NCBI GenBank assembly: GCA_973895155.1
Contig: OZ316896.1
Location: forward strand, 8,949,539 to 9,013,538
DNA: 64,000 nt
Reading direction: 5' to 3'
From: Marsupella aquatica
Taxonomy: Eukaryota; Plantae; Marchantiophyta
Part shown: piece by piece, positions 25,068-57,887 of the stretch
Layout: every line of letters begins with the position of its first letter
How positions within the stretch are numbered: the stretch's first letter is position 1
Position numbers and translations under genes: made by a program
The notes under the pieces: model-generated
Database searches by the model: none
Told to the model about the DNA's origin: nothing
The model's input: only the letters and a program-made list of their open reading frames with translations

Positions 25068-25084
25068 AACCCCAATTTAAGGAA
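25068..25084 (+). repeat. Left TIR of element A
   Basis: AACCCCAATTTAAGGAA, the exact reverse complement of 47452-47468. Confidence 0.9.
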
Positions 25085-28800: not shown

Positions 28801-28869
28801 AACCTGTTTCTCACGTATGCCTATAATAACTTGTCCGCCTTCCCTGATCTAGACTGTCGATGTCACCAT
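25864..28869 (-). pseudogene. DDD transposase, DUF7869/Sola-like (element A); one intron, premature stops, C-terminus truncated
   Basis: Motifs LIHDKMD, L*LDNCASDNKN, FMVVGHTHEDVD..F, CC..C and CTTC Zn-like motifs, and two N-terminal Tnp1/En-Spm-like repeats. Intron ~26981-26790 restores the frame. Stops at 28849-51 and 26740-42. Confidence 0.8.
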
Positions 28870-29890
28870 AATAATTATGATCCTGCACATCAGAGAATAT
28901 CACTGTAAGCGTACAGTCCTGTCACGTCCGTCAACTTCACTGCACTATCCTGTCACGTCGGTCAACAAGCAAAATGTAGTCAATGCACTGAACTGCACGC
29001 GACTGGTCGCGTGACCCTAGAGGTACCACACATACCGGCAATGACTACAATCGATTACGATCAATCATTTCACATCCACTCAGAAAAAATGAGTGGACAG
29101 TACCAGTTTACCAATGAGTGGACACTGGACAGTCAGTAACTACTGAGGACTGTAAGCAATAAGCGCCAGTAAAACGTCCGTGAACTGCATTGTCCTGTCA
29201 CGACCATCAACAAGTAAGCAGAATGAAGTCAATGCACTGTCCTGCATGCGACTAGTCGCGTGACCTTAGTCAGAGGGTGTAGGGATAATAGGGTCTACGA
29301 CATAGAAGCTAGAAGCCTAGGCCCAAACTCTAGCTCGTACTTGGTACTTCAGAAGTAAGATACGATTGCGCATGAGACAGTAAGATACAATTACAGATCT
29401 GAAGGCATCACACATAGTTACCGACAACAGATTATGCATGGTCAGTCAGTCATTTCAAGTGAATGAGAATGACTACAATTGATTACGAACAATCATTTCA
29501 ATTCCACTCAGAAAAAATGAGTGGACAGTACCAGTTTACCAATGAGTGGACACCGGACAGTCAGTAACTACTGACCCTCATAAGCAATCTCAGTACTTCA
29601 CTAGCAATCAGTATTCCCGGGGCGGTCGCCAAACGTGAAATTAAATGCAAAAATTGGAGGGCAACTGAACTTCCCGCCAATTCTAATACGCGCCAGTCAA
29701 ACGCGCACTCTCTTCTAGAAACCACTATGTACAGTGACTAGTGGAGACTAAACAGTATAAAGCATTGAGATGATCCCTACTGCTCATTCCCCCACGAATT
29801 CCACTTTCTGGCTACTGGATAATCTATTCGCACATCAGCTCTCTCATTTCCAATTCTTAGTCTCGGTCCGCATCCCTTGTTTGAAGGGCG

Positions 29891-30433
29891 ATGACTACTC
29901 CGCTGAGCTCAAAGAATGAGGATTTTCCGACGGATGATTCAGAAGATTCGACGTATCGAATTCGTGGTACTCCTTATAGAACGTGTCAGCGATGTAATAT
30001 AATGTTTACGGTGACTAAATCGGGTCAAATGTTTTGTGAGAGACGCCATTGTTCGCCACATTTGTCAATGGAAGATCAGATGGAGAGCAATCCGACAGAG
30101 ATGACTACAAAGATGGCACCAGGGGAGAAGTTAAAGGGCAAAGCCCTCGTCAAATCCGTTTCGGGGGGGGAGAAGTTGAAGGACAAAGCATGCGTCGAAT
30201 ACATTTCGGGTGAAGCAGCAGCAAACGCTAACACAGTCAAGAAGGAGGCCAAGAAAGTGGACGCTCCAAAGAAAAGGCAATTAGAGATGAACGAAGATTC
30301 TGATTTGTATTATAGAAAGAGCAAGCCGAGAAAATCTATGGACGTTAGGACTTGGGCAAAGGAAGAATTCCTGGATTCAAGGGAATCCACACCAGACACC
30401 GATGAGTGGATGCCTTCATCTTGGAATGACTGA
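29891..30433 (+). CDS. Hypothetical 180-aa element protein with Cys/His cluster (CQRC...CERRHC)
   Basis: Intact ATG-TGA ORF, TATA-like TATAAA at ~29756, basic K/R-rich C-terminus. Confidence 0.5.
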   Translation: MTTPLSSKNEDFPTDDSEDSTYRIRGTPYRTCQRCNIMFTVTKSGQMFCERRHCSPHLSMEDQMESNPTEMTTKMAPGEKLKGKALVKSVSGGEKLKDKACVEYISGEAAANANTVKKEAKKVDAPKKRQLEMNEDSDLYYRKSKPRKSMDVRTWAKEEFLDSRESTPDTDEWMPSSWND

Positions 30434-30679
30434 CTCGATCGAAGTCTACAATATTTTGAGTATTCGAAGATTAGATCTACAGATTCAAGAGTAGTTCAAG
30501 TTAGAACTTGTTATAGATACTGTGTAGCTTAATTTCGTCCCATGGAAAATAGTGTTCGAAAGACCAGGTCAGTTAAATTCCTGGATAGTGCTAGTGGATA
30601 TGGATTCCACATCCGAAGTCCTTCGGGACCGATGTAACCATTTTAGCAATCAAGGAAAAATCTTCCACGAGATTCCTCT

Positions 30680-32400
30680 GGCCTCTAAAACATTAACGCG
30701 ACCAGGCGAAGACGTTGGTTTTAAATTAGATTGCTGGCCAATTCTTTGGGCTATCGACTACAATAAACAATATAAAAAAGACCTGAGATAAATTGGTTCA
30801 CGCGACTGTACGCGTGATGAAGTACATGTGTAACCGAAAAAAGAGGTCATCCAACTAACAAGTTGAGATCAGTCAAATCTAAGAAATAAAGCGCGATTAC
30901 GTTTAAGAGTGCAAAGCTTTCGATGACCTCTAAAACATTAACGCGACCGGGCGCGTCATGATACAAAGACGTTGGTTTTAGAATAGATTTCTGGCCAATT
31001 TTCTAGGCTGTCGACTACAATAAACAATACATAAAAAACCTGAGATAAATTGGTTCACGCGACTTTGCGCGTGATGAACTACATGTGTAACCAAAAAAAC
31101 AGGTCATCCAACTAACAAGTTGAGATCAGTCAGATCTCAGAAATAAAGCGCGATTACGTTTAAGAGGGCAAAGCTTTCGATGACCTCTAAAACATTAACG
31201 CGACCGGGCGCGTGATGATACGAAGACGTTGGTCTTAGAATAGATTTTTGGCCAATTTTCTAGGCTGTCGACTACAATAATCAATACATAAATTGGTTCA
31301 CGCGACTGTGCGCGTGATGAACTACATGTGTAACCGAAAAAACAGGTCATCCAACTAACAAGTTGAGATCAGTCAGATCTCAAAAATAAAGCGCGATTAC
31401 ATTTAAGAGGGCAGACCTTTCGATGACCTCTAAAACATTAACGCGACCGGGCGCGTGATGATACGAAGACGTTGGTCTTAGAGTAGATTGCTGGCCAATT
31501 TGCTAGGCTGTCGACTACAATAATCAATACATAAATTGTTTCACGCGACTGTGCGCGTGATGAACTACATGTGTACCCAAAAAAATAGGTCATCCAACTA
31601 ACAAGTTGAGATCATTCAGATCTCAGAAATAAAGCGCGATTACGTTTAAGAGGGCAGAGCTTTCGATGACCTCTAAAACATTAACGCGACCGGGCGCATG
31701 ATGATACGAAGACGTTGGTTTTAGAATAGATTGCTGGCCAATTTTCTAGGCTGTCGACTACAATAATCAATACATAAATTGGTTCACGTGACTGTGCGCG
31801 TGATGAACTACATGTGTAACCAAAAAAACAGGTCATCCAACTAACAAGTTGAGATCAGTCAGATCTCAGAAATAAAGCGCGATTACGTTTAAGAGGGCAA
31901 AGCTTTCGATGACCTCTAAAACATTAACGCGACCGGGCGCGTGATGATACGAAGACGTTGGTTTTAGAATAGATTGCTGGCTAATTTGCTAGGCTGTCGA
32001 CTACAATAATCAATATAAAAAAGACCTGAGATAAATTGGTTCACGCGACTGTGCGCGTGATGAACTACATGTGTAACCAAAAAAACAGGTCATCCAACTA
32101 ACAAGTTGAGATCAGTCAGATCTCAGAAATAAAGCGCGATTACGTTTAAGAGGGCAGAGCTTTCGATGACCTCTAAAACATTAATGCGACCGGGCGCGTG
32201 ATGATACGAAGACATTGGTTTTAGAATAGATTTCTGGCCAATTTTCTAGGCTGTCGACAACAATATAAAAAATACCTGAGATAAATTGGTTCACGCGACT
32301 GTGCGCGTGATGAACTACATGTGTAACTGAAAAATCAGGTCATCCTCCTAACTAGTTGAGATCAGCTGGATCTGAGAAATGGACCTCGATTACGTTTCGT
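30680..32400. repeat. Tandem array 1 of element A: ~7 units of ~243-257 bp, two ACGCG-N6-CGCGT palindromes per unit
   Basis: CTCTAAAACATTAACGCGACC recurs at ~30683, 30928, 31184, 31428, 31671, 31914 and 32171. Confidence 0.95.
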
Positions 32401-33859
32401 TTCGCTACGCCGTCGACTACAATAAACAATACCAAAACGTACGGACAACTATAATTGAACGCCATACAATTTTAGACTAGAGAATTCATTCGGATCCTCT
32501 ACTAGTACTTCTGATACATTGCTTCTATATTGGACTTGAAACACGGATTGATCAAAATCGGAGTGTGGAATTGGACCATAACTTCATTGACTCAATTCAT
32601 GCATTGAATGCGTGATTTAAGGCAACTATTCTCCTCATTTATTGCGGAATTAATGCTCATTGATACTTACAAGCTATTCAGTTGCGTGTGGACTCAACGA
32701 TGTTGGCGGCAACCCTCCTCCCAGCAAAGCCTCTTCCTTCCAGCGTAGCCTCCTCCTCGTCCCAGCAAACTAATCCTCCTCCTTCGAACTCCAATTTCCT
32801 TGAGTATCATGACCGAATCCCACCACCAGAGAATGAAACCTTGTTGATCGTATCGAGATCAAAATCCTTGACCAGACAGTGATTTCAGACTAGCCGCACT
32901 TTGTTGGTCCGCTAGAATGCTTCGATGAATGAGGCAGACTGGAGGTTCTAAATCTTTTGTCGTCCCGCTTGATCGGATGTGCCCTCCCCAAGAATGGGAT
33001 ACAATAAGAACTGCGCCAGCGTTGCTTGAATGAGCTTCGCCTCCGCCTGGAATAGACGAATGATCCAATATGCTCCACCTCAAATGTGCCTTGGATCAGC
33101 CTCCACTGAGAGCCCAGCTAGTATCCTGGTCAGGAGAAACTGAAAATGAAGAATGATCCGTGAGCAATGAGATCAGTCTATTGACTCCATGAGGGATGTG
33201 TTCATCTTGACTCGATTTTGATTTTGAAAATTGGTTCAGTCTCCAGTCGTGAGAATCATTGTACAGGATTTGGCACGATAGCTTCTTGAGTTTTGAATTG
33301 AGTTGCTATTCAACGCGCGAATAATCATACGGATCCGGTGTTCTCCACTTCCAAAATGGATTGATTTTGAATATCGGTTCTCCCCGACCATGAGAATCGT
33401 TTGACGTTGTTTAGAGTTTGGGTTTGAATTGGCAAGATAGAGAGTGGAGTACGGATCCGGATCCGACGGTCTCCACTACCAAAATGGAATGATTTTGAAG
33501 TTCGCCTCACTCCGATCGTGAGAAACTTGTCGTTTGTTCAGATTTTGGATTTGAATTGGCAGATATAGTGAAGATACGGATCCGGATCCGGGGGTCTCCA
33601 CTAACAATCTATCGCAGTCGCATAATTACCGGTTTAAATTTCAAATTGGCGATCAAATAGAAATCTCCTTTACCGGAATCCTTTTGATTTTCCGTACTAA
33701 TCTTTTTTTCACGATTGCATAGTTTGTTGAGTCGTTGGTGGAGTGTACGGAGATCATCTGGAACCTTCCTGTCGCTAGGCTGTTATTAGGGTTATGCTAA
33801 AACGATACCCTAATTAGTCGTTCCTTAGTGTTGGCGCCCACGGTCTCGAGTTCACTGTT

Positions 33860-34740
33860 CATTGTTGTTGATTCTCTCTCCTAGACTTTCGCACGCCTGC
33901 TCTCATCGCTCTCGCTCTCGCTCTCGCTCTCACTCTCGCTCTCGCTCTCGCTCTCGCTCTCGCTCTCACTCTCGCTCTCGCTCTCGCTCTCGCTCTCGCT
34001 CTCGCTCTCGCTCTCGCTCCTGCCCTGGATTTCATTTTCATCGTTGCAGCTCGTTCGTTATGGTCAGGTGCTGGTCGGCGCGTTGCAGCTCTTAGTAGTT
34101 GTCGATCGTTTCGGTCAGGAGCTCGTTGGCACGTTGCAGCTCGCATTTACAGCTCGTATTCACTTCTAGTTTGCTCGAAGGGATTCTTAGGAGCTCGTTG
34201 GGTTTGTTGCAGCTAGTTTGTTGGGAGTGTTCGTATCAGCTCATGTCAGCCAATTTTAAGCTCATATCAACTCCATCAACGTGTTTCAACAGATCGAACT
34301 ACTTTTTGGCAGCTTGTTTCAGCTCCTTTCATTCATCATTCAGGTTTGTTTCAGCTCTTTCAATCTTCAGGTTTAGTGCGCTTTTATTCATGCTCAGTTT
34401 GTCTATCGACAACTTTGATTGTACTTCAGGAATAATCTTTTTAACTCGACATAATGAGTTCCATAGCATTAAGCACATGTTATTCAATTGGCAGCAGCGA
34501 AGCTCTATATAGAAGCTGTGTTATTGTTGCTTAGCATATTTACTTTCTGGAATGCCGCAGCAAGGTCTTCAAGTGCTTGGACGTCAATCTCTCAAACGAT
34601 TACAACACTTTTTCAGAATTCAGGTGCAATTTCTACATTTTCTGTTGGTGTTGATTGTTGTTTGCTAAAATTTCTCTTGATTGTTAAGCTGAGTTTGTCT
34701 GTAAACTCAAATATGTCTGAATCATACAAACTCACTAATT
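33860..34740 (-). pseudogene. Degenerate coiled-coil ORF ending in a (GAGCGA)n Glu-Arg microsatellite
   Basis: (CTCGCT)n at ~33905-34020 on the + strand. The minus strand upstream reads as E/K/L/Q-rich helical sequence with many stops. Confidence 0.4.
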
Positions 34741-35149
34741 AAAATACAACCTGAATTGTATTAAGTAAGTCATTACAAACCTGCACGCTGTGAAATTTAA
34801 TCATATAAACTCTCATGTTATGTGAATCTCATTACACTGAATCATTTAATTGACGAATACAACCAGTAGACTGCTAAATTGAATCATCTTAGCTGAATCA
34901 TTCTCTAAACTGAATTCCATGCAATCTGAAAACTTCTGATATATAATAGTTTCACAATGACAGAGCTCAAACATCTGAGTTATTGTAAAGTTCACGAATG
35001 AATACTAGTGTGCTTGAATCATTCAATAAATGCATCATTGCACTTTTCTAGTTCAAAAACTCATGCTTACTCGGATTTCCCTGTCCGTACGGGTCAGTAA
35101 TCACAGTTGTATCACTGTATTATCCTAGTGTCCAAAAGTGGTTTGAGCT

Positions 35150-36905
35150 GTTGACGCGACCAGTCGCGTGAGAAGATTGTGAGGTTCCATTTTAGGGTCA
35201 GTTGACGCGACCAGTTGCGTCTGAGGGAGCTCTCTCATTGACTGGTTCCGTTAGAGGAGGTATGGTTCCATTTAGGACCAGTCGCGTGTGAAGGAGACAT
35301 GATAGATTATTGAGCGCGTTTAGGGTTTAGGTTCAGTTGACGCGACCAGTCGCGTGTGAGGTAGCTCTCTCATTGACTTGTTCTGTTAGAGGTATGGTTC
35401 CATTTAGGATCAGTTGACGCGACCAGTCGCGTGTGAGAAGGAGAGGATAGATTATTGAGCGCGTACCATATCCAAATCTCCACAAGGAAGGTTCAGTTGA
35501 TATAGTTGTTTAGGTTTAGTTGATACGACCAGTCGCGTGTGAGGTAGCTCTCTCATTGACTGGTTCTGTTAGAGGTATGGTTCCATTTAGGATAAGTTGA
35601 CGCCACCAGTCGCGTGTGAGTAGGAAACAGGATAGATTATTGAGCGCGTATCATATCCAAATCTCCACAAGGAAGGTTCAGTGGATATAGTTGTTTAGGT
35701 TTAGTTGACGCGACCAGTCGCGTCTGAGGTAGGTCTCATTGACTGGTTCTGTTAGAGGTATGGTTCCATTTAGGATCAGTTGACGCGACCAGTCGCGTGT
35801 GAGAAGGAGAGGATAGATTATTGAGCAAGTACCATATCCAAATCTCCACAAGGAAGGTTCAGTTGATATAGTTGTTTAGGTTCAGTTGACGCGACCAGTC
35901 GCGTGTGAGGTAGCTCTCTCATTGACTAGTTCTGTTAGAGGAGGTAAGGTTCCATTTAGGATCAGTTGACGCGACCAGTCGCGTGTGAGAAGGAAACAGG
36001 ATAGATTATTGAGCGCGTATCATATCCAAATCTTCACAAGGGCGGTTCAGTGGATATAGTTGTTTAGGTTTAGTTGACGCGACCAGTCGCGTCTGAGGTA
36101 GGTCTCATTGACTGGTTCTGTTAGAGGTATGGTTCCATTTAGGATCAGTTGACGCGACCAGTCGCGTGTGAGAAGGAGGATAGATTATTGAGCGAGTACC
36201 ATATCCAAATCTCCACAAGGAAGGTTCAGTTGATATAGTTGTTTAGGTTCAGTTGACGCGACCAGTCGCGTGTGAGGTAGCTCTCTCATTGACTGGTTCT
36301 GTTAGAGGAGGTAAGGTTCCATTTAGGATCAGTTGACGCGACCAGTTGCGTGTGAGAAGGAAACAGGATAGATTATTGAGCGAGTATCATATCCAAATCT
36401 CCACAAGGGCGGTTCAGTGGATATAGTTGTTTAGGTTTAGTTGACGCGACCAATCGCGTCTGAGGTAGATCTCATTGACCGGTTCTGTTAGAGGTATGGT
36501 TCCATTTAGGATCAGTTGACGCGACCAGTCGCGTGTGAGAAGGAGGATAGATTATTGAGCGAGTACCATATCCAAATCTCCACAAGGAAGGTTCAGTTGA
36601 TATAGTTGTTTAGGTTCAGTTGACGCGACCAGTCGCGTGTGAGGTAGCTCTCTCATTGACTGGTTCTGTTAGAGGAGGTAAGGTTCCATTTAGGATCAGT
36701 TGACGCGACCAGTTGCGTGTGAGAAGGAAACAGGATAGATTATTGAGCGAGTATCATATCCAAATCTCCACAAGGGCGGTTCAGTGGATATAGTTGTTTA
36801 GGTTTAGTTGACGCGACCAATCGCGTCTGAGGTAGATCTCATTGACCGGTTCTGTTAGAGGTATGGTTCCATTTAGGATCAGTTGACGCGACCAGTCGCG
36901 TCTCT
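35150..36905. repeat. Tandem array 2 of element A: ~180-bp units (higher-order ~360-bp dimer) with ~20 ACGCGACCAGTCGCGT palindromes
   Basis: GTTGACGCGACCAGTCGCGT recurs at alternating ~75 and ~105 bp spacing. Confidence 0.95.
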
Positions 36906-36984
36906 CTCATTGACTGGTTCACGTGACCCAAAAAATCACAATCTCCAAAAGAATTGTTCAGTAGACGCGACCAGTCCATTTGGC

Positions 36985-37536
36985 ATGGGGGAACCTAGTC
37001 TGGAGAGCTTCAGATATCTATGCCCAATATTTGACGTTTTGGACAGAAGCCAAGATGGTCTACTGGCGGGATATTCTGTATTTGTTGAAAGACTACTACC
37101 TGGACTTCCAGATTTCATTGTCGCGGAATTGATATGGCCTCGCACCAAGGAGTCCTTGAATTCCTCGGCTAATGCAGGAAATTTCTCAATAAAGGAATTG
37201 GATGAGTTTGTAGGACTATCTTCGGTATGTCGTAGATGGCGCCACCTTGTTGGGAATACCTATCTTCTGGGTGTAATCAAGTTGAGTTTATTAGATTTGG
37301 CTTCCCCAGGAAATCCTAGTAAACCGATCCAAAATGAGTCTCTCTCATCGACAGTTCAAAGTTTCTTCCAGAAATACCCAAGAATTAAATTTATGGGGTC
37401 AATGTCCAGAGATCTAAGGGAACTCTTCACGAAGACTTATGATGCTCTTCACCCTCTTGAAAAATGGAAATTTACAGTCAGATGCCACGAAGTTGGATAC
37501 CTTGAGGGTGACATCTATGCTTTTAAGGAATTCTAG
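36985..37536 (+). CDS. F-box-like protein 1 (cargo)
   Basis: LLPGLPDFIVAELIWP ... SSVCRRWRHLV. Confidence 0.6.
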   Translation: MGEPSLESFRYLCPIFDVLDRSQDGLLAGYSVFVERLLPGLPDFIVAELIWPRTKESLNSSANAGNFSIKELDEFVGLSSVCRRWRHLVGNTYLLGVIKLSLLDLASPGNPSKPIQNESLSSTVQSFFQKYPRIKFMGSMSRDLRELFTKTYDALHPLEKWKFTVRCHEVGYLEGDIYAFKEF

Positions 37537-37600
37537 TTAACTTACGTGACCAAGCGCGTCGTATGTCTTCTAACAATGTTTTGTATATGATAAAAGCAGG

Positions 37601-38125
37601 ATGAGCCAACTTTTGAATGAGGCTCGAGATTTCCTTTCATCTCATGAAAGGAAACAAAAAACAATATGGGATACGCTGGATGAAACCTCCTCTAGTCTCA
37701 TTGGAGGAATACCAGATGTTTTGGTCATTTCAAACATTTGGCCAATACTCTACAAACACTTTATTTCAATTGAAGAATTGCCTGGATATCGACACCCCGA
37801 GATTGATTTGGTTATGGATAGGGTCCAAGACCTTATTCGGCTTGGAGCTTGTAGCAAGAAGTGGAACTTTTTAGTTACAAATACAAGGTTATGGGCTATC
37901 CTCAAACAAGCAAACCGGATTGTCGATGTCGCAAATGATGCTCTTTACGACATACCCAAAACTGACAAGTTGGAGTTTGACTCAGTCTGTTGAGCTATTC
38001 GACAGGATATTTCTATGCTTCCAGAAATATATGTTCTTGGGACTACTACTTCTGACAAAATCTCATTGTTTACCAACAAATATAACAATTTAGATGAGGA
38101 AGAACGAGATGTCCTAATCGAAAGG
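37601..38125 (+). pseudogene. F-box-like protein 2 (premature TGA at 37991)
   Basis: LIGGIPDVLVISNIWP ... ACSKKW. Similarity to paralog 3 continues past the stop (ISMLPEIYVLGG vs IRTLPPLDILGG). Confidence 0.6.
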
Positions 38126-38201
38126 TTTGGTAGATTTTCTCAGAATCTCTGTGGTCCCAGTTCTTAATTGATAGGTTCTTGTTCTTAATCTTTTCCATAT
38201 T

Positions 38202-38732
38202 ATGTTGCAGTCCTTTGACATGAATCGAAAATCTCATCGTCAAATGATGATGGAGCGCATTGCACGTGCAAAGGTTATGAACCGAAATATGATATGGAGT
38301 CAAGCTGAAGACCTGATACCCGGTCTTCCGGACGATATTGTCGAGAAATATATTTGGCCATTAGTCAAAGAGTTTTTCCACTGTCTTGGGAATTTGTCGG
38401 ATAATGCGATTAAAAATCGGGTCATGGACTTGATCGCCATTCGGACAGTCAGTAAGAAGTGGTGCCACATAGTTACTTATAGTAGTACTTGGGCGACGGT
38501 CACCTTGGTAGCTTACGACTTCACTGATAGACCAGGATATGAATCGCTTCGAAGGTATTTGACTTCACGGAATGTAGCATTCAGATTTATAGAATCCATC
38601 AGAACTCTCCCGCCGCTGGACATTCTGGGTGGATTTGTAGGATTTGAACTTGACACGTTTAGGAACCTTTGGTTTTGGTTAGATGAAGATGAGCGAAAGG
38701 ATTGGGTCAAGGAAAACATTCCTAAAATGTAA
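38202..38732 (+). CDS. F-box-like protein 3 (cargo)
   Basis: LIPGLPDDIVEKYIWP ... RTVSKKW. Confidence 0.65.
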   Translation: MLQSFDMNRKSHRQMMMERIARAKVMNRNMIWSQAEDLIPGLPDDIVEKYIWPLVKEFFHCLGNLSDNAIKNRVMDLIAIRTVSKKWCHIVTYSSTWATVTLVAYDFTDRPGYESLRRYLTSRNVAFRFIESIRTLPPLDILGGFVGFELDTFRNLWFWLDEDERKDWVKENIPKM

Positions 38733-38807
38733 TTCGGCACGACGCGACCATGCGCGTGTTAGTATTTTATAATAAATGTTTAACTTTCAATATTTGTCTA
38801 TTTCAGA

Positions 38808-41800
38808 ATGGATCATACCGGAACTTCAAAGCGGAAAAGAGACTCGTCTAAACCTGCTTCTCAAAAGAAAGCCAAGACAAGAACGACTCCCGTGGAGACA
38901 TCCATACTTGCATATCGAGGAAAGTCAATCAGAGAGAGAACAACGGAGACAAAGAGTATCCATCTCTTTGATTCGACTGAGATATCCGATCTTGGAATAG
39001 TCGTTGACAATGGGGCTGTCCGTCGTGTGGTGGCAAAAAATGATAAAGCTACAGTTTTGGAGAGATCACAAATTCTTGGGTGTTTGTTTGAGAAGAGCAT
39101 GAAAGTGAAAGAGTGTATAGAAGGATTGGTTCTGCTAGTCAGCGACGACCAGCAGGATGACAAAATAAACATTTGTTTGGATCGAACGCAATATGTAACC
39201 TTCAATCAGTCCAGAATCGATGATCTTCTAGGTGCAAGGCACGCTTTGGAAAAGGTTACTAGTGTGGGATACCCTTCCGATCCAGAGGGATCAACGGGAG
39301 ATTTGATTTGTCAATACATTATTGATGTACTTGAGTTCCAGAGAGTTCCTTTCAACCAGGGATTTTGCTTGGGAAAGGCCCCCCCAGTGACCAAGGTTGA
39401 AGTATACTCGGCGGAGAATCTTTCGAAAGTCATTACCTCAGCGAATGTCGGGGCTCTGTTCGATTCTTTCCTCAAAGAATATAGTGCTGTGAATATATTT
39501 AACAGCAAGTCATTTTTTGTTGAGACATCACGTTGTCATCTTGCACCGGACCACATCAAGTGCCGAGAGTGGAATCAGGATTACACAGATAGGCTAAAGA
39601 ATTCACTCCTCTCTCATTCGGCTATAAAGTTCGAAAAGCGATGCTACTTTTTAGTCCCTGTGAAGTGGGTTCAGTCGGAGGCCGACAGAGATCCCAACTA
39701 CAATGGGACACCCTACGATTCGGCGCCAACGGAGGAGGACATTATGACCAGTCATTTTTGGATACTCGGAGGCCAGCACACAATAATGGCGTACAAATTG
39801 CTGAGGATGGACGACAAAGTCAGCCAAGTTGTTCGGGACGCATGCGGTACAGTAGAAGCTGTAATGTTTTGGGCAACTCTCAACAACGACAATAATGTTC
39901 ATTTGATGGGACTATCGAAGGCTCTGAACCACTGTCATCAAACATCAATGGAAGAAGGATAGTTTCTCACCATTGTACCTCAGTGTCGTAATATCTGGAA
40001 CTCATTCGGGCGGCCTAGATCACATTATCGTCATCCAAATTGGAAGGTATATAAATAACCATCTTCCCTAAACCCTAAACATTATCTTTTAAATGTTTTC
40101 TCACGCAAACGGTCGCGTCAATCTTAGAATATTCATGTTTCCATTGTTTTTCAGGTATTTATGAGAGCTACGAGTTTTGTTTGCCCATGGGCTCAAATGG
40201 GGAAGAACGAAATGATGAAATTTGGAGAATTGGCTCCATTTCTCTTTACAATGGAGGACGAAACATTCAAGAAGTGGATGGAGGTCTACGAACTATCAAG
40301 GACAGGAGAGCTTGTAATTTACAACGGAATTTTACAGAGAGACGCCGTCAAAATTGCGGATAATCCATGTGCTTATCATCTCCTTAAGAAGACGTTCCGT
40401 TCTTGTCAAGGGTGCTCGGACTCGGTTCTTCGAAAGGCAGCGGAATATATGTTGAGCGGAAGACTGTCTATACTCAAAAACCGAAGCATCAAAGTGAAAT
40501 CTGGGAAGGCGAGGAAGTCCTCTGAGGCTCCGGTGTTGTCAACGACCATCATGAGTTTGGAGCAATTCTGTATAAAGAAGAAGACGAAAGTTGAGTTTGA
40601 GATTTTATTATTGAGTAAACTCAACGGGGATACATCCACCCGGACGGAGCTGAAAAGTCTGACAGATTCAGCGCGGAAATTGCGGGTCAACGGAATGATT
40701 GATCGCTTTAAGCTCGACAAGATGGTGCTGAAGCAGTTGAGAGATGCGTTGAGTGGTTATCTGAAGAAGTGCTTAAATGTAAATATTAGTAATGATAATT
40801 TGTTGAAGGAGATAGACCCGATATTCTACAGGTTGGTGGAAGGAATACAGAAATCAGTTGATAGTCAAGGAAACCAACTAGTGCGGCCGGTCGGTGAGAG
40901 GCTGAAATTGCGATCTCTGCAGGATATACAAAATGCTGGGTTTGCAGACTGTATCATACGTGAAGACAAGAACCTTGCGAGCTTGATTTATTTTGATTCC
41001 TCATCAATGGGAGATTTGCGTCCGCCAAATTGCTCATTCTATGAGGGGTTATTTTGTGCTACTAGCGAGATAGGGGCAAAACCACACCATGTGGTTATTA
41101 TTGTAGCCTCTCCCGTTGAGTCTTATTTAATCAAACGGGAATTAGGGAAGTACACACACTACGTTGCTGTCGATAACCATTATATTCAAAAGCGGCCAAA
41201 GGAGAAGAAGCTTATTGTAACCTACGCTTTTCACAGCTTGGCCTTCAGCACAATGGGCGATCCACAAGCCCTCGAGTTCCAGTTGGTCTCCAAATATCGG
41301 ATTGATAAGATAGCCAATTTTGAAGAGAGCGGCGAGTTTACGACACCTTCCCCAGAAAAGATACTTCCATTCTTTGAAAGTATTGTTAGTCAATTCGTCC
41401 AATGTGGGGAATGGGCTATATGCTTCGGCGAGGGAACGAACTTGATCCAGTGCCTAATGGTAAGTTTTGAGATTTATATTTTGGGGTTTCGATTTTAAGA
41501 TTATTTGGATTTTCATATTCTCAATTAATATTGTGAACTAATTTCGGCTTGTTTTACAGGATGCTGGATCCAATGTAAAATATTACTGCCCTGTGGCAAC
41601 GCATAAGGAGTTGTCTTGTTTCTTGCAACACACCACGGCGACAATTGATACAACGCTGTCATTGATTGACCCAATACGGGCTAGTATAGAAAAATGTATA
41701 GATAAATTAATGAAGTACCGTCCATCCGTAACTGCTCTCAGGGCTGATGTCTTGGATGTCCTCCACGAACAACATATCCCAGATAATATTTGTAATCAAT

Positions 41801-43697
41801 TATTGCAAGAGTATGCCCTCTCTGAAGATTCCAATCGATTGTACATTCGACCAACGGAGTACCCTCGTGGGCCATTCCAAGGTAGGTTACTTTTGAACCC
41901 TCTTACTTTTTCTTGGGTCACGCAAACATGCGCGTGGACATTCTCAACATTTCTTTCTAATCTAATGATCTGATTTTCTTCAGATCAAGTCGAACGCGGC
42001 TCCAATGTTGAGGATGCAGGGAGCAATGGTGATGCGGATGGTGAGGGGGAAGGAGACGCGGAAGGTGACGCGGATGGGGATGTCAATGACCAAGATCCAG
42101 AGTGGATGACCGATACCCAGAACGACGTCGGATATTCTGACAAAAGCGAGGAAGAGAGTGACGGAGAGGAGATGAAGGACGTTGAGGATGATGAGGACGC
42201 TGAGGACGCTGAGGACTCTGAGGACGCTGAGGACTCTGAGGACGCTGAGGACTCTGATGAAGAGGCCACAAAGGGCCTTGTCATGAGGCGGACCAAGAGG
42301 AGGCGGCCCGGCAGGAGGACGCCCGGCAGGAGGCGGCCCGGCAGGAGGCGGCCCAGCAAGAGGAGCTTCAAAAGAAAGAGGCGGTCCGACAAGAGGCGGC
42401 CCGGCAAGAGGCGGCCCGGAAGGAGGAAGCCCGGCAGGAGGAGGCGACCCGGCAGGAGGAGGCCCGGCAAGAGGAGGCCCGACAAGAGGAGGCCCGACAA
42501 GAGGCGGCCCGGCAAGAGGAGCTTCAAAAGAAGGAGGCTAAGAAGAAAAAGGCGGCAGCTAGAAAAGCAACTGCCACAAAGAAGAAGGAAAAAGCCGACG
42601 CTGAGAAAGCCCAGGCGGAAAAAGCCCAGGCTGAAAAAGACCAGGCGGAGAAAGCCGAGGCTGAGAAAGCCAAGGCTGAGAAATCCCAGGCTGAAAAAGA
42701 CCAGACGGAGAAAGCCGAGGCCGAGAAAGCCGAGGCCGAGAAAGCCAAGGCCGAGAAAGCGGAGGCGGAGAAAGCCCAGGCTGAGAAAGCCCTTTTAGTG
42801 ACCGAGGAAAATAGGGCCGAGGCGGAGAGAGCCGAGGCGGAGAGGCTGCTGGCCAAGAGGATGGCGGACCAGAGCGAACAGACCGCAAGACCGGAGAGGG
42901 AGGAGGCGGAGGAGGCACAAAAGGTTGATTCCGCAAGACTGGAGAGAGAAGATACCGCAAGACTGGAGAGGGTGGAGGCGGAGAAGGTAGAGGCAGCGAG
43001 GAGGGAGGCCGAGAGGGCCAAGGATCTTTCGCTTATTCCTGAAGCACAACGTCTACCGAAAATAAAGCTGAATTTGAAGAAGCCTTCTTCACCCTCGGTT
43101 GCAGTTAAGAAGAAAATATTAGACTATTTTCTTCGGCCGGAGTTTGAGTTTAACGATCCACCCTTAAGAACGGTCTCGTTGGATGATTGGAATAAATATT
43201 CACCGGAGCAGCTCCGAGTCCAGGCTATCTTGGCTTTGCAATATTGGAAGGGTCTTTTGATTACCGAGGAGAAGACTTCCACTGCATCCAGAATGGAGAC
43301 AATCATCAATAATGTCCGATTTTCCGAGAATCGAGTGCAAGACCTGGGAATATCTCTGGCACCAGACTCGGCTCAAGTCGTTAAGAGACTAACAGCTGAG
43401 TTGATGCGACCGGGTTCGTGGTCTCGACCCCGATATACTGCAGAGGTCACTCGCGCGGAAATTGTGGCCCCGGATATTTTGGAATCGGATTCCCAGATTG
43501 TTGAATATTTAAATCAAATGCCACAACCATTCGAAGGTCTTCCTGCCTCATCGCTACAACCTTCGCAAACTGGTCCGTTGGAGCGATCACTGCGGTCTCG
43601 AGGAGGGTTGAAGGATGTTGTTGCGAAGGAGGCACCCAAGAGATCAGCTGTGAAAAGGCCGGATCCACCCAATCCAAAGGTCATCCGCAAGCTATAA
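38808..43697 (+). pseudogene. Large spliced protein: ParB/Srx-like domain + degenerate beta-class N4C/N6A MTase fold + acidic tract + EAARQ/AEK coiled-coil repeats
   Basis: FWILGGQH at ~39760; EKILPFFESIVSQFVQCGEWAICFGEG at ~41355. Frame-preserving introns 40047-40154, 41460-41559 and ~41882-41983. Stop at 39960 and frameshift at ~42280. Collinear similarity to the element B gene. Confidence 0.65.
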
Positions 43698-43829
43698 GCT
43701 TAAAGTTTCTATTATAACAGTCATTATTTTATTATTGATTTGTTATTGTTTCTGTTTTCTGAGGTAGAACCCTTAGGCTACAACCTCAGTACGTTATTTG
43801 AAGGCGTACTGAACCTCTGTTTTTTGCAG

Positions 43830-45605
43830 TTTTTTGAAAATTTGGCTAGTCGAATAGATCAATGCCTTGATCCTTCTAAGGATATGGAAGAGCTATTGAC
43901 CAAGTTCTTACAACACTCGATCAAGAGAAAACATATGATGTGTCTGAGACCACGCGAGTTGCTCACTGATGATATAATTAACGCTTATTTGAGTTTTCTC
44001 GAACTGATTCTCGATAGAGTTGGAAAGTCAGACCTTGTCAAATTCTTCCAAACACACCATTTTGAGCTTCTCTCCATGGATCCTACCATTTTCGATGAGA
44101 GAGCATCTTGGACAAAGGAGTTTCCGCTGAGAATCAATGAATACGACAAACTGGTCTTTCCAGTACACAATGCCGTGAAAGAACATTGGTCATTGGTAGT
44201 TGTGTATCCGAAGGAGAAACGGCTCGAGTATCTAGATTCCCTAGTTCATAATCGACAGAATCCTGGGGTGCTAGATATTGTTGGGAAGTATTACGCCGAC
44301 GAAATTGGCTGGAGAACTGGTGTCAACTTGGATCTCTCAGGTTGGGAACGGATATATCGGAATGATATTCCTCACCAGAGTGACGGGCATAGTTGTGGTG
44401 TGTTTATCTTGAGATTCGCCAAGTGCTTGTGTCAAGGAAACGAAATTAATTTTTCCGCGGATCAAATTGAGAAATTCCGTAGGGAGATAGTCTTGTCGTT
44501 ATTTGACATGGACTTCCGCAAGCCGACGTCCGCAAATAACCTAGTTATCGGGATCCGTGCTGCTATGATTGACATTGGCGGAATTGAAGTACTGAACGAC
44601 CGTCTTGTACAGGTAATACACTTCATTTCAGTATCTCTTTGTAGTCACGCGACCATTCGCGTTATAAACTTATTTTCATTTCTTAATGTTTTACAGAAAC
44701 CTATCCTGAAACCCCTTGATCGAGTATCGAAGGCACCAGTTTGGAAGTCCGATGATCGTCGTCTGGAGGCGGGAAACAAACAGACCGTTCTAGTCTGTTC
44801 TCCAAACCCTACGACACAAAAGTCACAGGTACAGATGGCGCCTAAACCATCGGCGCAGAAGTCACCGGTTCAGAAGAGACTTGTAATTTTTGATCTGAAT
44901 CGGGTACTTATCTGGTCAGAGAAGATCATCCCTGGGATGCCCATTCGGTCAAGGGGGGTGAGACACATGTACAAGGTTATCTATCCAAGGCCTGATTTAA
45001 TGGAATTTCTTCAGAAGGTGGCAGATCTATACGACATTGCGATCTGGTCATGCATGATGAAACGGAATATTCTATCTTGTTTAAGGCTGATACTTCGACC
45101 CGAAGTTTTGAAACGTATTAAATTTATATGGGGACAAGAATCAACTCGACCTATTGGGAAGAATAATAATGACATCCCCTTATTTGTCAAATGTCTCTCT
45201 GACATTGCCGCCGATATTAAAGATTACAACATCGAAAATGTCATTCTTATCGATGATGCTGCATATAAGACGAGCCTTAATAACTTCTACTCATCGTTGT
45301 ATCCCGATGCATATTCTGGGCTCGATGATGACATATTTTTTAGAAAGAAACTATATCCATATCTATGCGACATGTCAATTGACAAGTTGACATTTCGCCG
45401 GCTCCTTAGTGACCATGGGATTCCAACGTTCTCTCGCGAGAATCTTGAGAAAGATTATATTGATAAGGCGAATCTTTGGAGGAGAAATGTGATCATTCGT
45501 AATCAGGGGAATAAAGACCATTTAGAAAATTTTGACGAATATATGAAATACTTATCTGCCGAAAAAGACCGTACTATAGAAGCCCGGGATAAGTCCGATA
45601 AGTAA
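43830..45605 (+). CDS. Ulp1/SENP (peptidase C48) domain fused to an FCP1/NIF HAD-like domain
   Basis: LTDDIINAY, EHWSLVV, YLDS and HQSDGHSCGVF give an intact H-D-C triad. LVIFDLNRVL, RPDL.EFL, IAIWS and ILIDD follow. Likely in-frame intron ~44613-44696 and AG acceptor at 43829. Confidence 0.88.
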   Translation, partial: FFENLASRIDQCLDPSKDMEELLTKFLQHSIKRKHMMCLRPRELLTDDIINAYLSFLELILDRVGKSDLVKFFQTHHFELLSMDPTIFDERASWTKEFPLRINEYDKLVFPVHNAVKEHWSLVVVYPKEKRLEYLDSLVHNRQNPGVLDIVGKYYADEIGWRTGVNLDLSGWERIYRNDIPHQSDGHSCGVFILRFAKCLCQGNEINFSADQIEKFRREIVLSLFDMDFRKPTSANNLVIGIRAAMIDIGGIEVLNDRLVQVIHFISVSLCSHATIRVINLFSFLNVLQKPILKPLDRVSKAPVWKSDDRRLEAGNKQTVLVCSPNPTTQKSQVQMAPKPSAQKSPVQKRLVIFDLNRVLIWSEKIIPGMPIRSRGVRHMYKVIYPRPDLMEFLQKVADLYDIAIWSCMMKRNILSCLRLILRPEVLKRIKFIWGQESTRPIGKNNNDIPLFVKCLSDIAADIKDYNIENVILIDDAAYKTSLNNFYSSLYPDAYSGLDDDIFFRKKLYPYLCDMSIDKLTFRRLLSDHGIPTFSRENLEKDYIDKANLWRRNVIIRNQGNKDHLENFDEYMKYLSAEKDRTIEARDKSDK

Positions 45606-45730
45606 ACATTTATTGTTTATTTTCAATTATTATTTATAAATTGATTGAAATTGAACTTTTGGGAGTGACGCGCCCGGTCGCGTGGTTGTTTGCAATTGCA
45701 TAATATGAGAATCGACTTGTTCATTTACAG

Positions 45731-46438
45731 GTGTCTAAGTGGAGCAGGTCGCGTCAACTTCTAGTTTTAGGACTGGAAAACTTCCTATGCTCTGTTTCAA
45801 AATATACTCCTCAGCTTAAGTCGACACCCGGAATTTGTATCGAATCTCTATGTGTCGTTCCGAGGCTGCATCTTCATGATCTTATAAAATTCTATTATGA
45901 TCATTTTGATGTGATGGTCTGGTCTATTCTCGACGATAAACTGGTTTATCAGATACTTTCAAAAGTGTTGTCGAGCACCGACCTGTCGCAGCTGATATAT
46001 GTGTTCACGCGGGATCATTGCTGGAATCTTGGTTATGTGAAGAAAAATTATAAGACTGTTGTCTTCAAATCTATCGAGAGACTACGTGATATGTTTCAAG
46101 ATTATCGACCAGAGAATATAATCCAGATTGATGCCTCTCCTTCCCATACATGCCACAGCGCTGTATGCGGATTATTGTTCGCTAAGTCGTTTCAAGGATC
46201 GTTGGATGATGTCTTTTTGAGGGATGACCTCATTCCATATTTACGAAAGCTATGGGATTCAGGGCTCTATCTTGCATTCGCTAACAAGTTCGATTATCCC
46301 ATCTGGTCGATTAGAAATCTACATCGAGATTGGGATCTGAACGAGGATATATGGGAGCATCTGTACGTGCAGAGACATGCGGATCAAGTTCTTATCAAGC
46401 ACTTCAATAGATGTCACTTATCAATGGCCAGAGTGTAG
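45731..46438 (+). CDS. FCP1/NIF-like HAD-fold paralog 2 (catalytic DxD motif lost)
   Basis: LLVLGLENFL, PRLHL, FDVMVWS, ENIIQID. Preceded by an AG acceptor. Confidence 0.75.
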   Translation: MSKWSRSRQLLVLGLENFLCSVSKYTPQLKSTPGICIESLCVVPRLHLHDLIKFYYDHFDVMVWSILDDKLVYQILSKVLSSTDLSQLIYVFTRDHCWNLGYVKKNYKTVVFKSIERLRDMFQDYRPENIIQIDASPSHTCHSAVCGLLFAKSFQGSLDDVFLRDDLIPYLRKLWDSGLYLAFANKFDYPIWSIRNLHRDWDLNEDIWEHLYVQRHADQVLIKHFNRCHLSMARV

Positions 46439-46527
46439 AGGATGTTGGCTGTCTGTAATATTTGACGCGACCATTCGCGTGACTACGTCCATACGGGCTC
46501 ATGCATCTTCTTGTGTTTCTCTACAGG

Positions 46528-47158
46528 AGAATCATTGCAGCAGAGAAAATGGGCTCATAGTTTTAGACGTGGAGCATCTACTCTGTTACACTGCACGGCA
46601 TTCCCGACTGATGGCGGTCTCGACTGGAATTCGGATTGGGAATATATACGTTTTTCCAAGGCCTCATCTTCACGAATTCTTGAGATTCTGTTTTGAGAAG
46701 TTTGATGTAGGGATCTGGTCCTCTCTTGGGAAGAGCCTTTTAGATCAGATTTTAGCATCTATTTTTACTGCGATGGAAATGGCCTCATTTAAGTATATTT
46801 GGGATGAGTCTCATTGTTACTTATTTATACGAAGGCGTATCTGCAGCAAAATATAATGCTTATCGATTCCGATGCATTTCATGCTTGTTTAGATCCTGTT
46901 GTTGGATCATTATTTCCGCCCAAATATTTTGGGTCGGTCGACGACAGTTTCCTGATTAACTTGCTGATTCCGTATCTTAGCAAGCTAGCAAAATCTTGTG
47001 AGCCGCTTGTCATTGCCAATGGAAGAGATTATCCTGATTGGTCAGTTAAATCTATTTTTAGAGATTATGATTATAATCATACTATATGGGAAGACCCTGT
47101 GATTCAGAGGCATGGAGATAGATATCTAGTAGAGCAATTTAACAGACGCCCAATTTAG
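46528..47158 (+). pseudogene. FCP1/NIF-like paralog 3 (frameshift/deletion at ~46825)
   Basis: LIVLDVEHLL, PRPHLHEFL, FDVGIWS, then NIMLIDSD in another frame. Clear similarity to paralog 2. Confidence 0.75.
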
Positions 47159-47451
47159 GACGCTTCCGAAATAATAGTCGGCATGAGATCAGATTAATTT
47201 GTATTATCGTTCTAGAAACGATTTGTAATCTCCCTATATACTGGTTATCATATATAAAGGATCTCAGAGATTTATTTCTCTTTTGTTATTATTTGCGTGA
47301 GCATGTCTCTTGGTCCCGTCAAGTTGGAGTGCGTCAAAAATCTTAGTTGCAGTCATTTTCAGGGTTTCACGCGCAATGACGCGTCATGTCTCCCCCTTTT
47401 TATATTAAAATAATAATATTTAGTGATTTTCAGAATTTCCAAAGTTTGGTT

Positions 47452-47468
47452 TTCCTTAAATTGGGGTT
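47452..47468 (-). repeat. Right TIR of element A
   Basis: TTCCTTAAATTGGGGTT followed by the TTAG TSD. Confidence 0.9.
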
Positions 47469-54045: not shown

Positions 54046-57000
54046 CTACTCATCAATTATACCTTCCATGTAAATTTTGAGAGTTTTCAAAACATTCTTA
54101 GGAATTGTCAAACCTCTATCCATAATATTTTGTTCTTTAGCACCTGACTTAAACCCATACATTGCAGAATTTGCAAACTGCCAACTTTGAGTAACATTGT
54201 CAAACCCAGGATCCAGCTCCCAAGTCTTAGTGGTTTGAAAGCAACGTTCATATCGAACATCATCCTTTGCATCATACTTACCATGTTTAGGCCTCCACCA
54301 TTGTACTTGGAACATAGGAGCATTCCTAAGAGGAATGCTCTCAACAGACGTTGAAGAAGACCCTTCAATATGTTGCAAATATGTTGAGGGAACCTCATGG
54401 TTTGGATCCACACCACCCAAAGCTCGAACCAACCAGAAACGCCCTTTGCCGTTTTCCTGTTCCCATTCATCCTCTGGACATAAAAATACAAAGTGACCTT
54501 CTTGAATATCTTGTAGAGGAATCCAACATGCAGGTTCTCGCTCTTGTCGTGCACCAACAAAGGGTGCAGCTTGATCTTCCATCTCTTCCATGTACTCATT
54601 TTGAAGGTCCATCATCTCTGGATTTTGAGAAGGTTCACTTGACGACTGAGATGTCCCCAAAATCATCTTGTAACCTATGCCATGGTTAGTCTTTGGCCAA
54701 AAATCAGTTGTCAATGACAAATGTCTTTCCCCCTCCCCTTCTATTGTAAGTTCCTCGGACAGTGCTTGCACAAGATTCTCCCAATATTTGACCAGAGGAA
54801 ATCTCTCTTTATATGCTGCAGAGGTCTCATCCTTACAACTTTTCTTCAAGAAATCAATATAGCGATTAAGGAATGGGATGATTTCTCCAGCCTTCTTTTG
54901 TACATCCTCAGATATAGGTTTTGCAAATGGTTGGCCTTCCGGTAAAATGAGCGCATTTGTGATGGGATCAGTTCTCCAAATGGACCTCCCCATTGCCAGA
55001 AGCCAAGGTTGCTTGACATGTGCTTTATATTGATACACTGGCACATTATCTCTCATGGAGAAAAGAAATGCCACTGGTTTTGAGTGACCTTCTATCTCTT
55101 TCACCTGGAAAGTTTTCAAATACTCCTTGTAAGATGCAACCTCTTGAATCAATCGTGGTACAGGATGAATGCTTTCACACTCCCAAACCTCAGCCATCAA
55201 CCCCAAGAGGGTAGACACCTCTTTGTATCTGACCTATTTGGATACTTGAGAAAATAATTCATCCACGTCTTCATGGGTGTGGCCAACCATGAGGAATGAC
55301 ATTTGCACAATTTCAAACACCCCCTGCTAACAAGCTAAGTGCAAAATGCCATCACATATTGATTTTTGTTATCTTTCCCTGAATTGTCCATCTACAACGT
55401 TAGGTGCCTTGGTAAGGGCTTGAAAGAGCCCCTAGTAGTCTCAGGATCATCCTTAGAACCAACATCCACTGTGCTTGACTTTTTAGTCTCCTGACCATCT
55501 TCAATGCCTTGAAATCGAACAATTGAAACATTTTTGGGTTCCAAGTAACCGGCCAGAAATGCTTCAAAGTCTAGAAGGGACTGAAATATTGGCCTAGTTG
55601 CATTCCAATTCAATCCCTCAAGAAGGTCTCCAGTTTTGTCTCCTGTGTAATCTTCCAAATCTCGGAGGCATTTGGCCAAAGATGTCACGGTAAAGTCTGC
55701 ATCTCCAGGCCAAAGTCCAGTCAAACTGAAATGTGCATACACTCCAGGATCTCTTCCATGGGTTAACATCCCAGTAAGAGCAATAGGCAAAGGCTGACCA
55801 CTACCAGAGAGGGATTTTGGAGTGGGGACCAACCTGGGGATCCAAGTCTTGGCTTGATCCATCTTATCGTGAATAATGCAAAGATAGTTTTGAGGATCCT
55901 TCTTTGCAAGAACCCTATGAGCATAGTAAACATATTTTCTTGACATTTGTTCACGAAGATGTCACGCTCTTTTCTCTTCAATCTCTGCACGCTCTTTTTT
56001 TCTCTTCTCCCGCATCAATTGATCTTTGAACTCAGTGCAAAATGTGCACTTGGCAAATGCACTTCCCTTGTGAAAGTCAAAATTATCAAATGAGTTTTTC
56101 CAGATGTTGTACATAGTAACTTCAGTAACCTTAGCAAACCCATCTAATTCCATCTTGGTAAACACCTCTTGGAAAATCTCCTTCTTAGTAAAACAAGATG
56201 GGAGCCGATATTCAATAGTGTCAGTGCCGTTGGACCCACCATAGGGAAGATGTGGCATTGGTTCCCCATTTTGGATTAAAATGGACTCCAACAAGGCGCG
56301 AGCGTGCAAAGTGCTTGATCGTGTCTTCCGTTGTCCCTGATTTCCATGGAAACCAATTGTGCAACCAGCTTCGTATTGATTTTTGTAGTCATAGTACTTT
56401 GTTGTACTGAACCCATGCATTTTAATAAATGCATCTTTACAAACCACACGTCCCTTTAGAACAAAAAATCCCTTTCTCTTGACTTGCTCCTCTCTACACC
56501 CAAAGAGACTAAAGATGTGACTTGTTTTGTTGTCACTTGACATTCCATGGTATTCCCTCCTCATTGCCTCTAAGTCCTCCCTGGGCATGTTCAAGCAACA
56601 CTTCAGCTTGCAACAACCTTCTCTTTGGATGGAATCAATGGACTCCTCGTTAATTTTCAAAAGTGCCCTCGACTCCAAATGCCTTTTCTTCCTCTCCTCA
56701 AGATCAACTTTTGTCCTCCTAATGAAATTGTATGGTCTTTTTGTAGGTTTACCATCACCATCCGAATCCGGATCGCCCTTAGTTCGACCCGACTCCATCC
56801 ACTTCTCTGAAACTTCCTCAAGGATATCCCCAAGAAACCTTTGAGACGAAATCAATAGAAGGGATTTGATTTCCCACCTCACCAAGCCAGGGGTACCAAC
56901 ACGGATATTTGGAAATAATCTGGGTTCATTGATATTCACAACAGCAACACCAACATGATCTGCACCAAGAAGTTCATCGTCAACGGCACCTGTTTCAAAT

Positions 57001-57761: not shown

Positions 57762-57887
57762 GATAGCGGACTATCTGTATTCAAATAAAGTTAGAAATTG
57801 TTAAGTTCCCCATGTTACAATCATGTTTCAAAATCTGGACTCTCCTCCAAAAAATATTGTAAAATCACTCAAAACCCTAAATACATT

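Follow-up and report, generated by a model that had tools for sequence, protein, structure and literature searches.

Why should a giant DNA transposon carry copies of one short palindrome, singly, in the introns and spacers of its own genes? The question is raised by a 64,000-nt stretch of the genome of the liverwort Marsupella aquatica (contig OZ316896.1; the whole stretch is referred to below as the window), within which lies a 22.4-kb element, termed element A, that we class as a Sola1-type transposon. A preliminary description of the window had listed eleven variants of ACGCG-N6-CGCGT in this element and had proposed that selection maintains them, outside coding sequence, as binding sites for a dimeric protein. 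We likewise infer binding by a dimeric protein and selective maintenance of the sites, and our preferred reading, to which we give a probability of about 0.45, is that the palindromes are putative binding sites of a ParB-like protein encoded by the element itself, in a self-recognition system resembling that of VANC. Positions of all features are collected in Table 1.

The motif itself is not in doubt. All eleven sites were recovered, each with 0-2 mismatches, and the 6-bp spacing is indeed fixed, since scanning spacers of 0-12 bp returned exact matches at 6 only (31). Against a background consisting of shuffles and the rest of the window, the excess is large: 42 matches with at most one mismatch were found, compared with a shuffle mean of 0.32 and a maximum of 2 (100 shuffles), and all 42 lie within element A, with none in the window DNA outside it. 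When the right arm is considered without the arrays, its 8 sites compare with a shuffle mean of 0.05 and a maximum of 1 (300 shuffles). Allowing up to two mismatches brings the total for element A to 44 sites, namely 13 in array 1, 20 in array 2 and 11 singles; the list in the preliminary description was thus complete for the singles but missed the 33 sites that lie in the two tandem arrays.

The arms had been described as conserved while spacer and flanks vary, which proves correct for the flanks but not for the spacer. Among 13 non-redundant sites, 48 of the 78 spacer positions agree with ACCGGT (5000 draws of a post-hoc null gave a mean of 27.6 and a maximum of 37), and for the eight right-arm singles the figure is 27 of 48, a value reached in 1 of 5000 null draws. 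The 2 bases on either side of the 16-bp motif are also conserved. Because the spacer is constrained too, the motif should be described as a complete dyad of 16-20 bp, composed of the directly joined halves (TC)ACGCGACC and GGTCGCGT(GA), with an information content of 1.4-1.8 bits in the arms and about 0.6 bits at the centre. Beyond the motif the flanks of the 13 non-redundant sites are unrelated (mean 15/50 identical, best 23/50). The view that the sites are not simple duplications holds for these non-redundant sites, although most copies in the element stem from tandem duplication within the arrays, and the sites at 28997 and 29246 are copies within one duplicated segment.

The placement of the sites follows the non-coding parts of the right arm. 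Introns were inferred from GT-AG ends and reading frame, and 11 non-coding gaps in 36967-47468 were defined from open reading frame (ORF) ends and GT-AG signals after the sites were known. Eight of these gaps hold a site, in agreement with the claim that most introns and gene spacers do so: three of the four in-frame introns (40047-40154, 41882-41983 and 44613-44696), four of the six spacer-like gaps, and the right end. All eight right-arm sites thereby fall within about 10% of the sequence, for which the chance expectation is about 1e-8, and the avoidance of coding sequence is upheld; one weak match in coding sequence, at 43404, scores 15 bits compared with 15.8-31 for true sites. The position of the site within its gap ranges from 7 to 62 nt from the 5' end. 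Two empty gaps (41460-41559 and 43698-43763) had been named beforehand, and a third, 38130-38210, had not. The suggested periodicity of one site every 1-3 kb fits the right arm, where intervals are 658-2727 bp, but coverage of the element is uneven, the transposase region between 25333 and 28997 being free of sites for 3.66 kb.

Other copies of the element were sampled in right-arm contigs from public sequencing runs of three organisms, which contain many variants (2870, 1966, 1188 and 108 records), as expected of a multi-copy family, and whose depth yields no copy number. The region 39990-40230, which includes one intron in full, was compared in four runs from two studies. At the one site examined in this way (40103) the arms hold, as the preliminary description would lead one to expect: 27 of 71 positions of intron 40047-40154 outside the site carry a substitution or deletion, whereas the site shows no indel, one spacer change and a sole arm change, which goes toward the consensus (p 0.013 to 0.076 by a one-sided Fisher test, according to whether the arm change is counted). 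This site is tandemly duplicated in all four runs, as is site 38742 in copies from one run, and in a diverged copy the site near 41920 is kept amid different flanking letters. Contigs of three runs join 38939 to 46635, suggesting an internal-deletion derivative common to the family. CpG content differs along element A. The CpG observed/expected ratio of the transposase is 0.30-0.31, and at codon boundaries the ratio is 0.18-0.38 in the site-free transposase compared with 0.75-1.34 in five right-arm exons, a contrast that is weakly consistent with local protection of the site-bearing arm.

The candidate reader of the sites is the product of the putative four-exon accessory gene. A profile built from the exons of element A, of a second transposon in the window (element B) and of two close relatives found 154 representatives; 11 of the 20 proteins looked up are named family members, from Riccia (5), Calypogeia (3), Adiantum (2) and Ceratodon (1). 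The methylase-like exons of A and B do not match each other significantly by BLAST, but are linked through Calypogeia and Riccia proteins and the common ParB profile; their nearest named proteins in a local search are from Calypogeia fissa (E 2.5e-53 and 5e-39, respectively). The Riccia member P0096 matches the A/B profile with E=2.5e-9, and its predicted model (91-row alignment) reaches a predicted local distance difference test (pLDDT) score of 83-98 over residues 91-340. This model matches Noc, ParB and KorB in Foldseek (E 1.2e-4 to 5e-3), and in VIA it matches PadC (Z 8.5, root-mean-square deviation 3.2 over 99 residues) and KorB (Z 8.3, 12.2 over 139). A helical domain follows the ParB fold in P0096, and alignments to Noc and KorB extend over about 300 columns, albeit with target TM-scores of only 0.34-0.45. 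On the basis of this model the accessory family is predicted to possess an N-terminal ParB/Noc/KorB-like (ParB/Srx) fold. For the methylase-like C-terminal part, comparisons with PF01555 remain below the cut-off (E=0.0046 for element B and 0.0002-0.004 for Riccia members), no Pfam methylase match was obtained for the element A protein, and N6/N4-methylase atlas leads score 0.91 for B and 0.84 for A. Searches of solved-structure sequences with A2, A4 and P0006 returned nothing relevant, viral and prokaryote collections contained no relatives, and no ParA was found with the ParB-like gene. Annotated members from Ceratodon (P0073) and Adiantum (P0086) combine a ParB-like domain and a NIF domain in a single gene model, which indicates that the link to NIF is not peculiar to element A.

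Related transposons carry palindromes of their own. Element B, which shares its transposase family with A, has a different word, GCCTCGCCC-N3-GGGCGAGGC, represented by 13 sites, of which 7 in a 65-bp array and 3 singles are all upstream of its ParB-like gene and 3 are in the in-frame intron 61905-62238 of that gene. A metagenome scan yielded 379 transposase-bearing loci, of which 80 (L001-L080) were kept. Among the 14 best-scoring loci, 9 extend for 500 bp or more beyond the transposase match on its upstream side, and 8 of these contain 3-12 copies of their own CG-containing palindrome there, L001 having one copy. L003 and L007 each have a single palindrome copy in a transposase intron, and in L009 the word occurs inside the transposase region. 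The transposases of L010, L011-L013 and L014 are only 0.04-0.08 changes per column apart, yet their palindromes differ, and do so symmetrically in both arms. These distances are short-branch comparisons, the sole use made of the transposase tree, in which A and B occupy long, weakly placed branches.

Several features of the motifs in these families may be recorded here. In element B the GCCTCGCCC-N3-GGGCGAGGC sites lie beside and inside the ParB-like gene (59574-62152); a second palindrome, GGGTCG-N9-CGACCC, forms an array at about 57888-58333 adjoining the transposase, with two further matches of this type in coding sequence (56770 and 63894), and both words are CG-N9-CG spaced. A central CG-NN-CG core is common to the transposase-proximal palindromes of L003, L004, L006, L010 and L011-L014, the arms being family-specific, and ACG-N10-CGT is common to A, L003 and L006. 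The 66 more distant loci (L015-L080) contain no strong CG palindrome array. In 21 of them the decayed word TGGYGGCCRCCA occurs at least 3 times, a word that was chosen post hoc, many of the loci being near-copies of each other. It is possibly a CpG-decayed CG-NN-CG dyad. These 21 loci, within L034-L076, constitute a CpG-depleted clade in which the word forms a decayed 46-bp array on the upstream side of the transposase and occurs singly on its downstream side. ParB-like remnants are present in only 2 of the 80 loci, the decayed pair L065/L069, where the gene is divergent from the transposase.

These observations can be accommodated in a mechanism in which the ParB-like protein of each family would read its own 16-20 bp dyad as a dimer. 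The arrays, upstream of two divergent transcription units, would serve as high-occupancy loading zones, and the single sites, tolerated in non-coding DNA only, would carry the bound state along the 10-kb cargo arm. Once occupied, cognate copies would resist methylation or silencing by the host, perhaps with help from the F-box, Ulp1 and NIF cargo. New sites would be born by short tandem duplication, and protein and motif would diverge together, such that families stay separate. In its widest form this proposal, which we advance tentatively and think somewhat doubtful, is that in liverworts, mosses and ferns the giant Sola1 elements use a ParB/parS code of bacterial type that has been repurposed for chromatin, in which a protein with a ParB fold and a dead methylase coats the element's own palindromes, in arrays and then intron by intron, and shields it from silencing together with SUMO-protease, phosphatase-like and F-box cargo, the pairs of protein and palindrome being rapidly re-keyed between sister families. 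If so, such elements would have an anti-silencing system with an origin independent of VANC and would provide a natural library of protein-palindrome pairs. Cognate binding, if true, would mean that land-plant transposons have a second means of self-recognition, one derived from ParB, and would yield a set of DNA binders with sequence specificity. As the candidate target is defined to the base, the palindromes of two families are present in one genome and those of sister families are symmetrically changed, a cross-binding test is straightforward.

A number of observations weigh against cognate recognition by a ParB-like protein. The exon of element A attains only E=0.087 against Pfam (ParBc_2) at best and, when folded alone, a pLDDT of 32, so that the ParB fold comes from the distant homologue P0096; a search for longer homologues of this exon found none, which is weak evidence. 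Active N6/N4 DNA methyltransferases possess the catalytic motif [DNS]PP[YFW]. None of the 12 sequences searched has it; these include both window exons, and several are partial. The ParB CTP (cytidine triphosphate) phosphate-binding motif GERRxR (PMC11790492; here and below, statements from the literature refer to the part of each source available to us) is replaced by GQH[S/T]xxA in a 75-row alignment of the accessory family. With the motifs for CTP binding and methyl transfer missing, the protein appears ParB-like in build and should be classed neither as a CTP clamp nor as an active methylase; it would more probably act as a static binder or scaffold. In the element A copy the reading frame of the gene is also broken twice, by a stop codon (39960) and by a frameshift (near 42274). 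Motif and ParB-like gene occur together only in A and B, which look intact, and in the decayed L065/L069, and the loci with the clearest arrays gave no ParB-like match in their recovered DNA. Nor is the intron layout universal: 3 of the 11 right-arm gaps lack a palindrome, and in L004, L006 and L008 the family's own motif is missing from the transposase intron. The duplicate of site 25333, at about 25581, has lost its palindrome, and 14 of the 15 arm deviations in the window are C>T or G>A changes at CpG, suggesting that the sites are probably methylated at times and would erode without selection. As regards protection, the Helitron in the window has a CpG observed/expected ratio of about 1.0 without any site, element B exons adjoining sites reach only 0.48-0.64, and within 1.5 kb of a site the ratio stays at 0.59-0.82 and shows no gradient.

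The rival that survives best, although we consider it unlikely, is that the transposase itself binds the palindromes, either in assembly of the transpososome or in sequence-specific activation of its own family. The arrays in 8 of the 9 informative close loci are directly upstream of the transposase, element A has one site near each end, the second array of element B adjoins its transposase, and TGGYGGCCRCCA flanks the transposase on both sides in the distant clade; there is precedent in the AtMu1 transposase and TnpA, both of which recognise motifs specific to their family and switch on cognate copies (10.64898/2026.08.24.746577). Those proteins bind at termini, however (same source), whereas the terminal repeats of element A are without the motif and 33 of its 44 sites are 5.6-11.8 kb from the nearer end, most of the rest being in introns of cargo genes. 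Near-identical transposase cores are also accompanied by different palindromes, a comparison made on the cores and not separately on the N-terminal parts.

Slightly less probable again is the idea that the ParB-like protein does bind the sites, but to hold down expression of the element, as a repressor or organiser of the KorB kind would. Structural comparison placed KorB among the best matches; from palindromic operators KorB exerts long-range repression (PMC11790492), and the arrays of element A are situated between two divergent transcription units. Retention of CpG nevertheless follows the site-bearing arm, and the plant precedents are activators. Ulp1 and phosphatase-like cargo are likewise better suited to counter-silencing than to repression of this kind.

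Recognition of the sites by a transcription factor of the host, such as LEAFY acting in type III mode or a CGCG-box factor, is quite improbable. Each arm of the motif does contain a CGCG-box-like word. The consensus core GCGACCGGTCGC also resembles the crystal oligonucleotide TTGCTACCGGTCGCTG (10.64898/2026.04.13.717636), but the type III mode contacts the central CCGG, which is among the least informative parts of the motif and where most sites deviate, liverworts are given as type I in the same source, and the palindrome differs with the transposon family, two being present in one window. Slightly less credible still are neutral relics, whether of a small repeat or mini-element inserted in AT-rich gaps or as by-products of tandem duplication. 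In their favour, the arrays consist of tandem duplications, individual sites have been duplicated in other copies, and ACCAT[GT] spacers are common to three introns; against this, the flanks of the non-redundant sites are unrelated, arms with four CpGs persist while the intron around them changes, and the layout recurs with other words in other families. Finally, a role of the motif at the RNA level, as hairpin or splicing signal, is highly unlikely despite the single sites in introns and intron-like gaps, for the majority of copies belong to arrays or to subterminal DNA, the distance from the gap 5' end varies, and the spacer tends to self-complementarity, which fits a double-stranded dyad rather than a loop.

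Table 1. Features of element A and the neighbouring element B, with positions in the window
Feature	Position	Strand	Remarks
Element A, classed as giant Sola1-type DNA transposon	25068..47468		22.4 kb; AACCC termini; 4-bp target-site duplication (TSD) TTAG
Terminal inverted repeat, left	25068..25084	+	AACCCCAATTTAAGGAA, 17 bp; TSD TTAG at 25064-25067
Subterminal palindrome, left	25333..25348		Both arms altered symmetrically; sequence scan
DUF7869 transposase, two ORFs	25864..28848	-	Pfam E=1.6e-31; no palindrome; CpG-depleted
Two palindromes, upstream of transposase	28997..29261		One duplicated segment; sequence scan
Array 1	30707..32397		243-bp unit, two palindromes per unit; 13 sites (30800-32308)
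Array 2	35154..36901		183/367-bp unit; 20 sites; directly upstream of right-arm genes
Three F-box-like ORFs	36967..38732	+	Pfam E 0.0013-0.043; weak, below cut-off
Single palindrome	37544..37559		Gap after F-box ORF 1
Single palindrome	38742..38757		GT-AG gap before ParB-like gene
Putative four-exon accessory gene	38808..43697	+	ParB-fold domain about 39390-40046; acidic and coiled-coil tail
Single palindrome	40103..40118		In-frame intron 40047-40154
Accessory gene, helical and N4/N6-methylase-like region	40155..41459	+
In-frame intron without palindrome	41460..41559	+
Single palindrome	41920..41935		In-frame intron 41882-41983
Ulp1-type SUMO protease domain	43764..44612	+	Pfam E=2.4e-21; HW and Q..D..SCG motifs present
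Single palindrome	44647..44662		In-frame 84-nt intron 44613-44696
Three NIF/FCP-like phosphatase-fold ORFs	44697..47158	+	Pfam E 8e-11 to 2e-9
Single palindrome	45668..45683		Between NIF ORFs 1 and 2
Single palindrome	46465..46480		Between NIF ORFs 2 and 3
Subterminal palindrome, right	47369..47384
Terminal inverted repeat, right	47452..47468	-	AACCCCAATTTAAGGAA, 17 bp; TSD TTAG at 47469-47472
Element B (comparison)	54046..64000		Transposase family as in A; divergent ParB/methylase-like gene

The remaining features of the window can be dealt with briefly. Element A is inserted in a short repeat (24860-25067 and 47469-48130), other copies of which display the empty site, and an empty-site-like copy is present near 47645; a 5-bp reading of the TSD (TTAGA) would demand asymmetric ends. 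Its transposase contains the motifs HDKMD, LDNC and GHTHEDVD and belongs to DUF7869, which we take to be equivalent to the Sola1-type (DDD) transposase. An ORF of 182 residues with a CxxC-like segment (29885-30433), located between the transposase and array 1, has no Pfam match, and a (TCGCTC)19 run between the arrays (33906-34019) is perhaps part of a 5' untranslated region. With respect to the donor that follows the Ulp1 exon, all three NIF exons are in phase 0 (44613, 44696, 45730 and 46526); for this reason they may be alternative last exons that exclude one another and yield three Ulp1-NIF variants. Outside the element, a Helitron Rep/PIF1 helicase ORF without palindrome (48493-52711) and a single-exon Armadillo-repeat host gene (8122-10359) were found, and none of the 21 ORFs scanned in the window has a Pfam match related to Mutator-like elements (MULE) or VANC.

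Accessory genes of ParB type, inverted-repeat arrays and the idea of self-binding are already published for algal transposons. Sola1-1_Ec32 of Ectocarpus is 21.5 kb in length, starts with AACCG, generates a 4-bp TSD and has a divergent gene for a ParB-like and N4/N6-methylase protein, which has been proposed to bind and modify its own element (PMC12477816). Element A (22.4 kb) matches it in giant size, AACC termini, TSD length and divergent accessory gene, and it is because of this match that we class element A as Sola1-type. It differs in being from a land plant, in its 17-bp rather than 282-bp terminal repeat, in the additional F-box, Ulp1 and NIF cargo and in a family without the methylase catalytic tetrapeptide, and the available text on Sola1-1_Ec32 describes neither palindrome arrays nor intron sites. 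The red-algal Plavaka elements PAG3/PAG2 have a ParB-like accessory protein with tandem inverted-repeat arrays beside its gene, for which self-binding has been proposed (10.1101/2025.02.11.637652). There, however, the transposase is of the EnSpm type, ParB is fused to a 2-oxoglutarate (2OG) oxygenase and the methylase is in a separate gene, and neither single intron sites nor family-specific change of the motif is described in the text available. In the literature covered, which leaves aside subscription papers, Repbase, Iyer 2011, the Sola paper and bioRxiv supplements, we came across no land-plant example of such elements and no description of single intron sites or of family-specific palindrome divergence, and the part of PMC6431247 available contains no passage on Sola or ParB.

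A precedent in land plants is the VANDAL/VANC system of Arabidopsis, in which the motifs bound by VANC21 lie in introns, in intergenic DNA and in tandem repeats of VANDAL21 (PMC5735166) and VANC opposes silencing of VANDAL elements (PMC5735166, PMC10398659). Both systems place family-specific motifs in introns, intergenic DNA and tandem repeats, and in both the motifs diverge fast between related elements. VANDAL elements are of the Mutator type with short, non-palindromic, AT-rich motifs (YAGTATTAY and AGTTGTCC), there is no sign of a VANC-like protein in our window, and function is shown for VANC but inferred here. Spm TnpA and AtMu1 offer a further parallel, in that clustered family-specific motifs are read by a protein that the element encodes, although binding is terminal in those cases whereas the sites of element A are mostly internal (10.64898/2026.08.24.746577). 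The bacterial systems ParB/parS, Noc with its binding site (NBS) and KorB/OB provide the likeness in build. They share the predicted N-terminal fold and dispersed 16-bp palindromes, the length of both parS and NBS (PMC7383237), with a specificity that is altered by few bases (PMC7383237, PMC11790492); in contrast to them, the protein described here would operate in a eukaryotic transposon, carries a methylase-like C-terminal fusion and dispenses with GERRxR.

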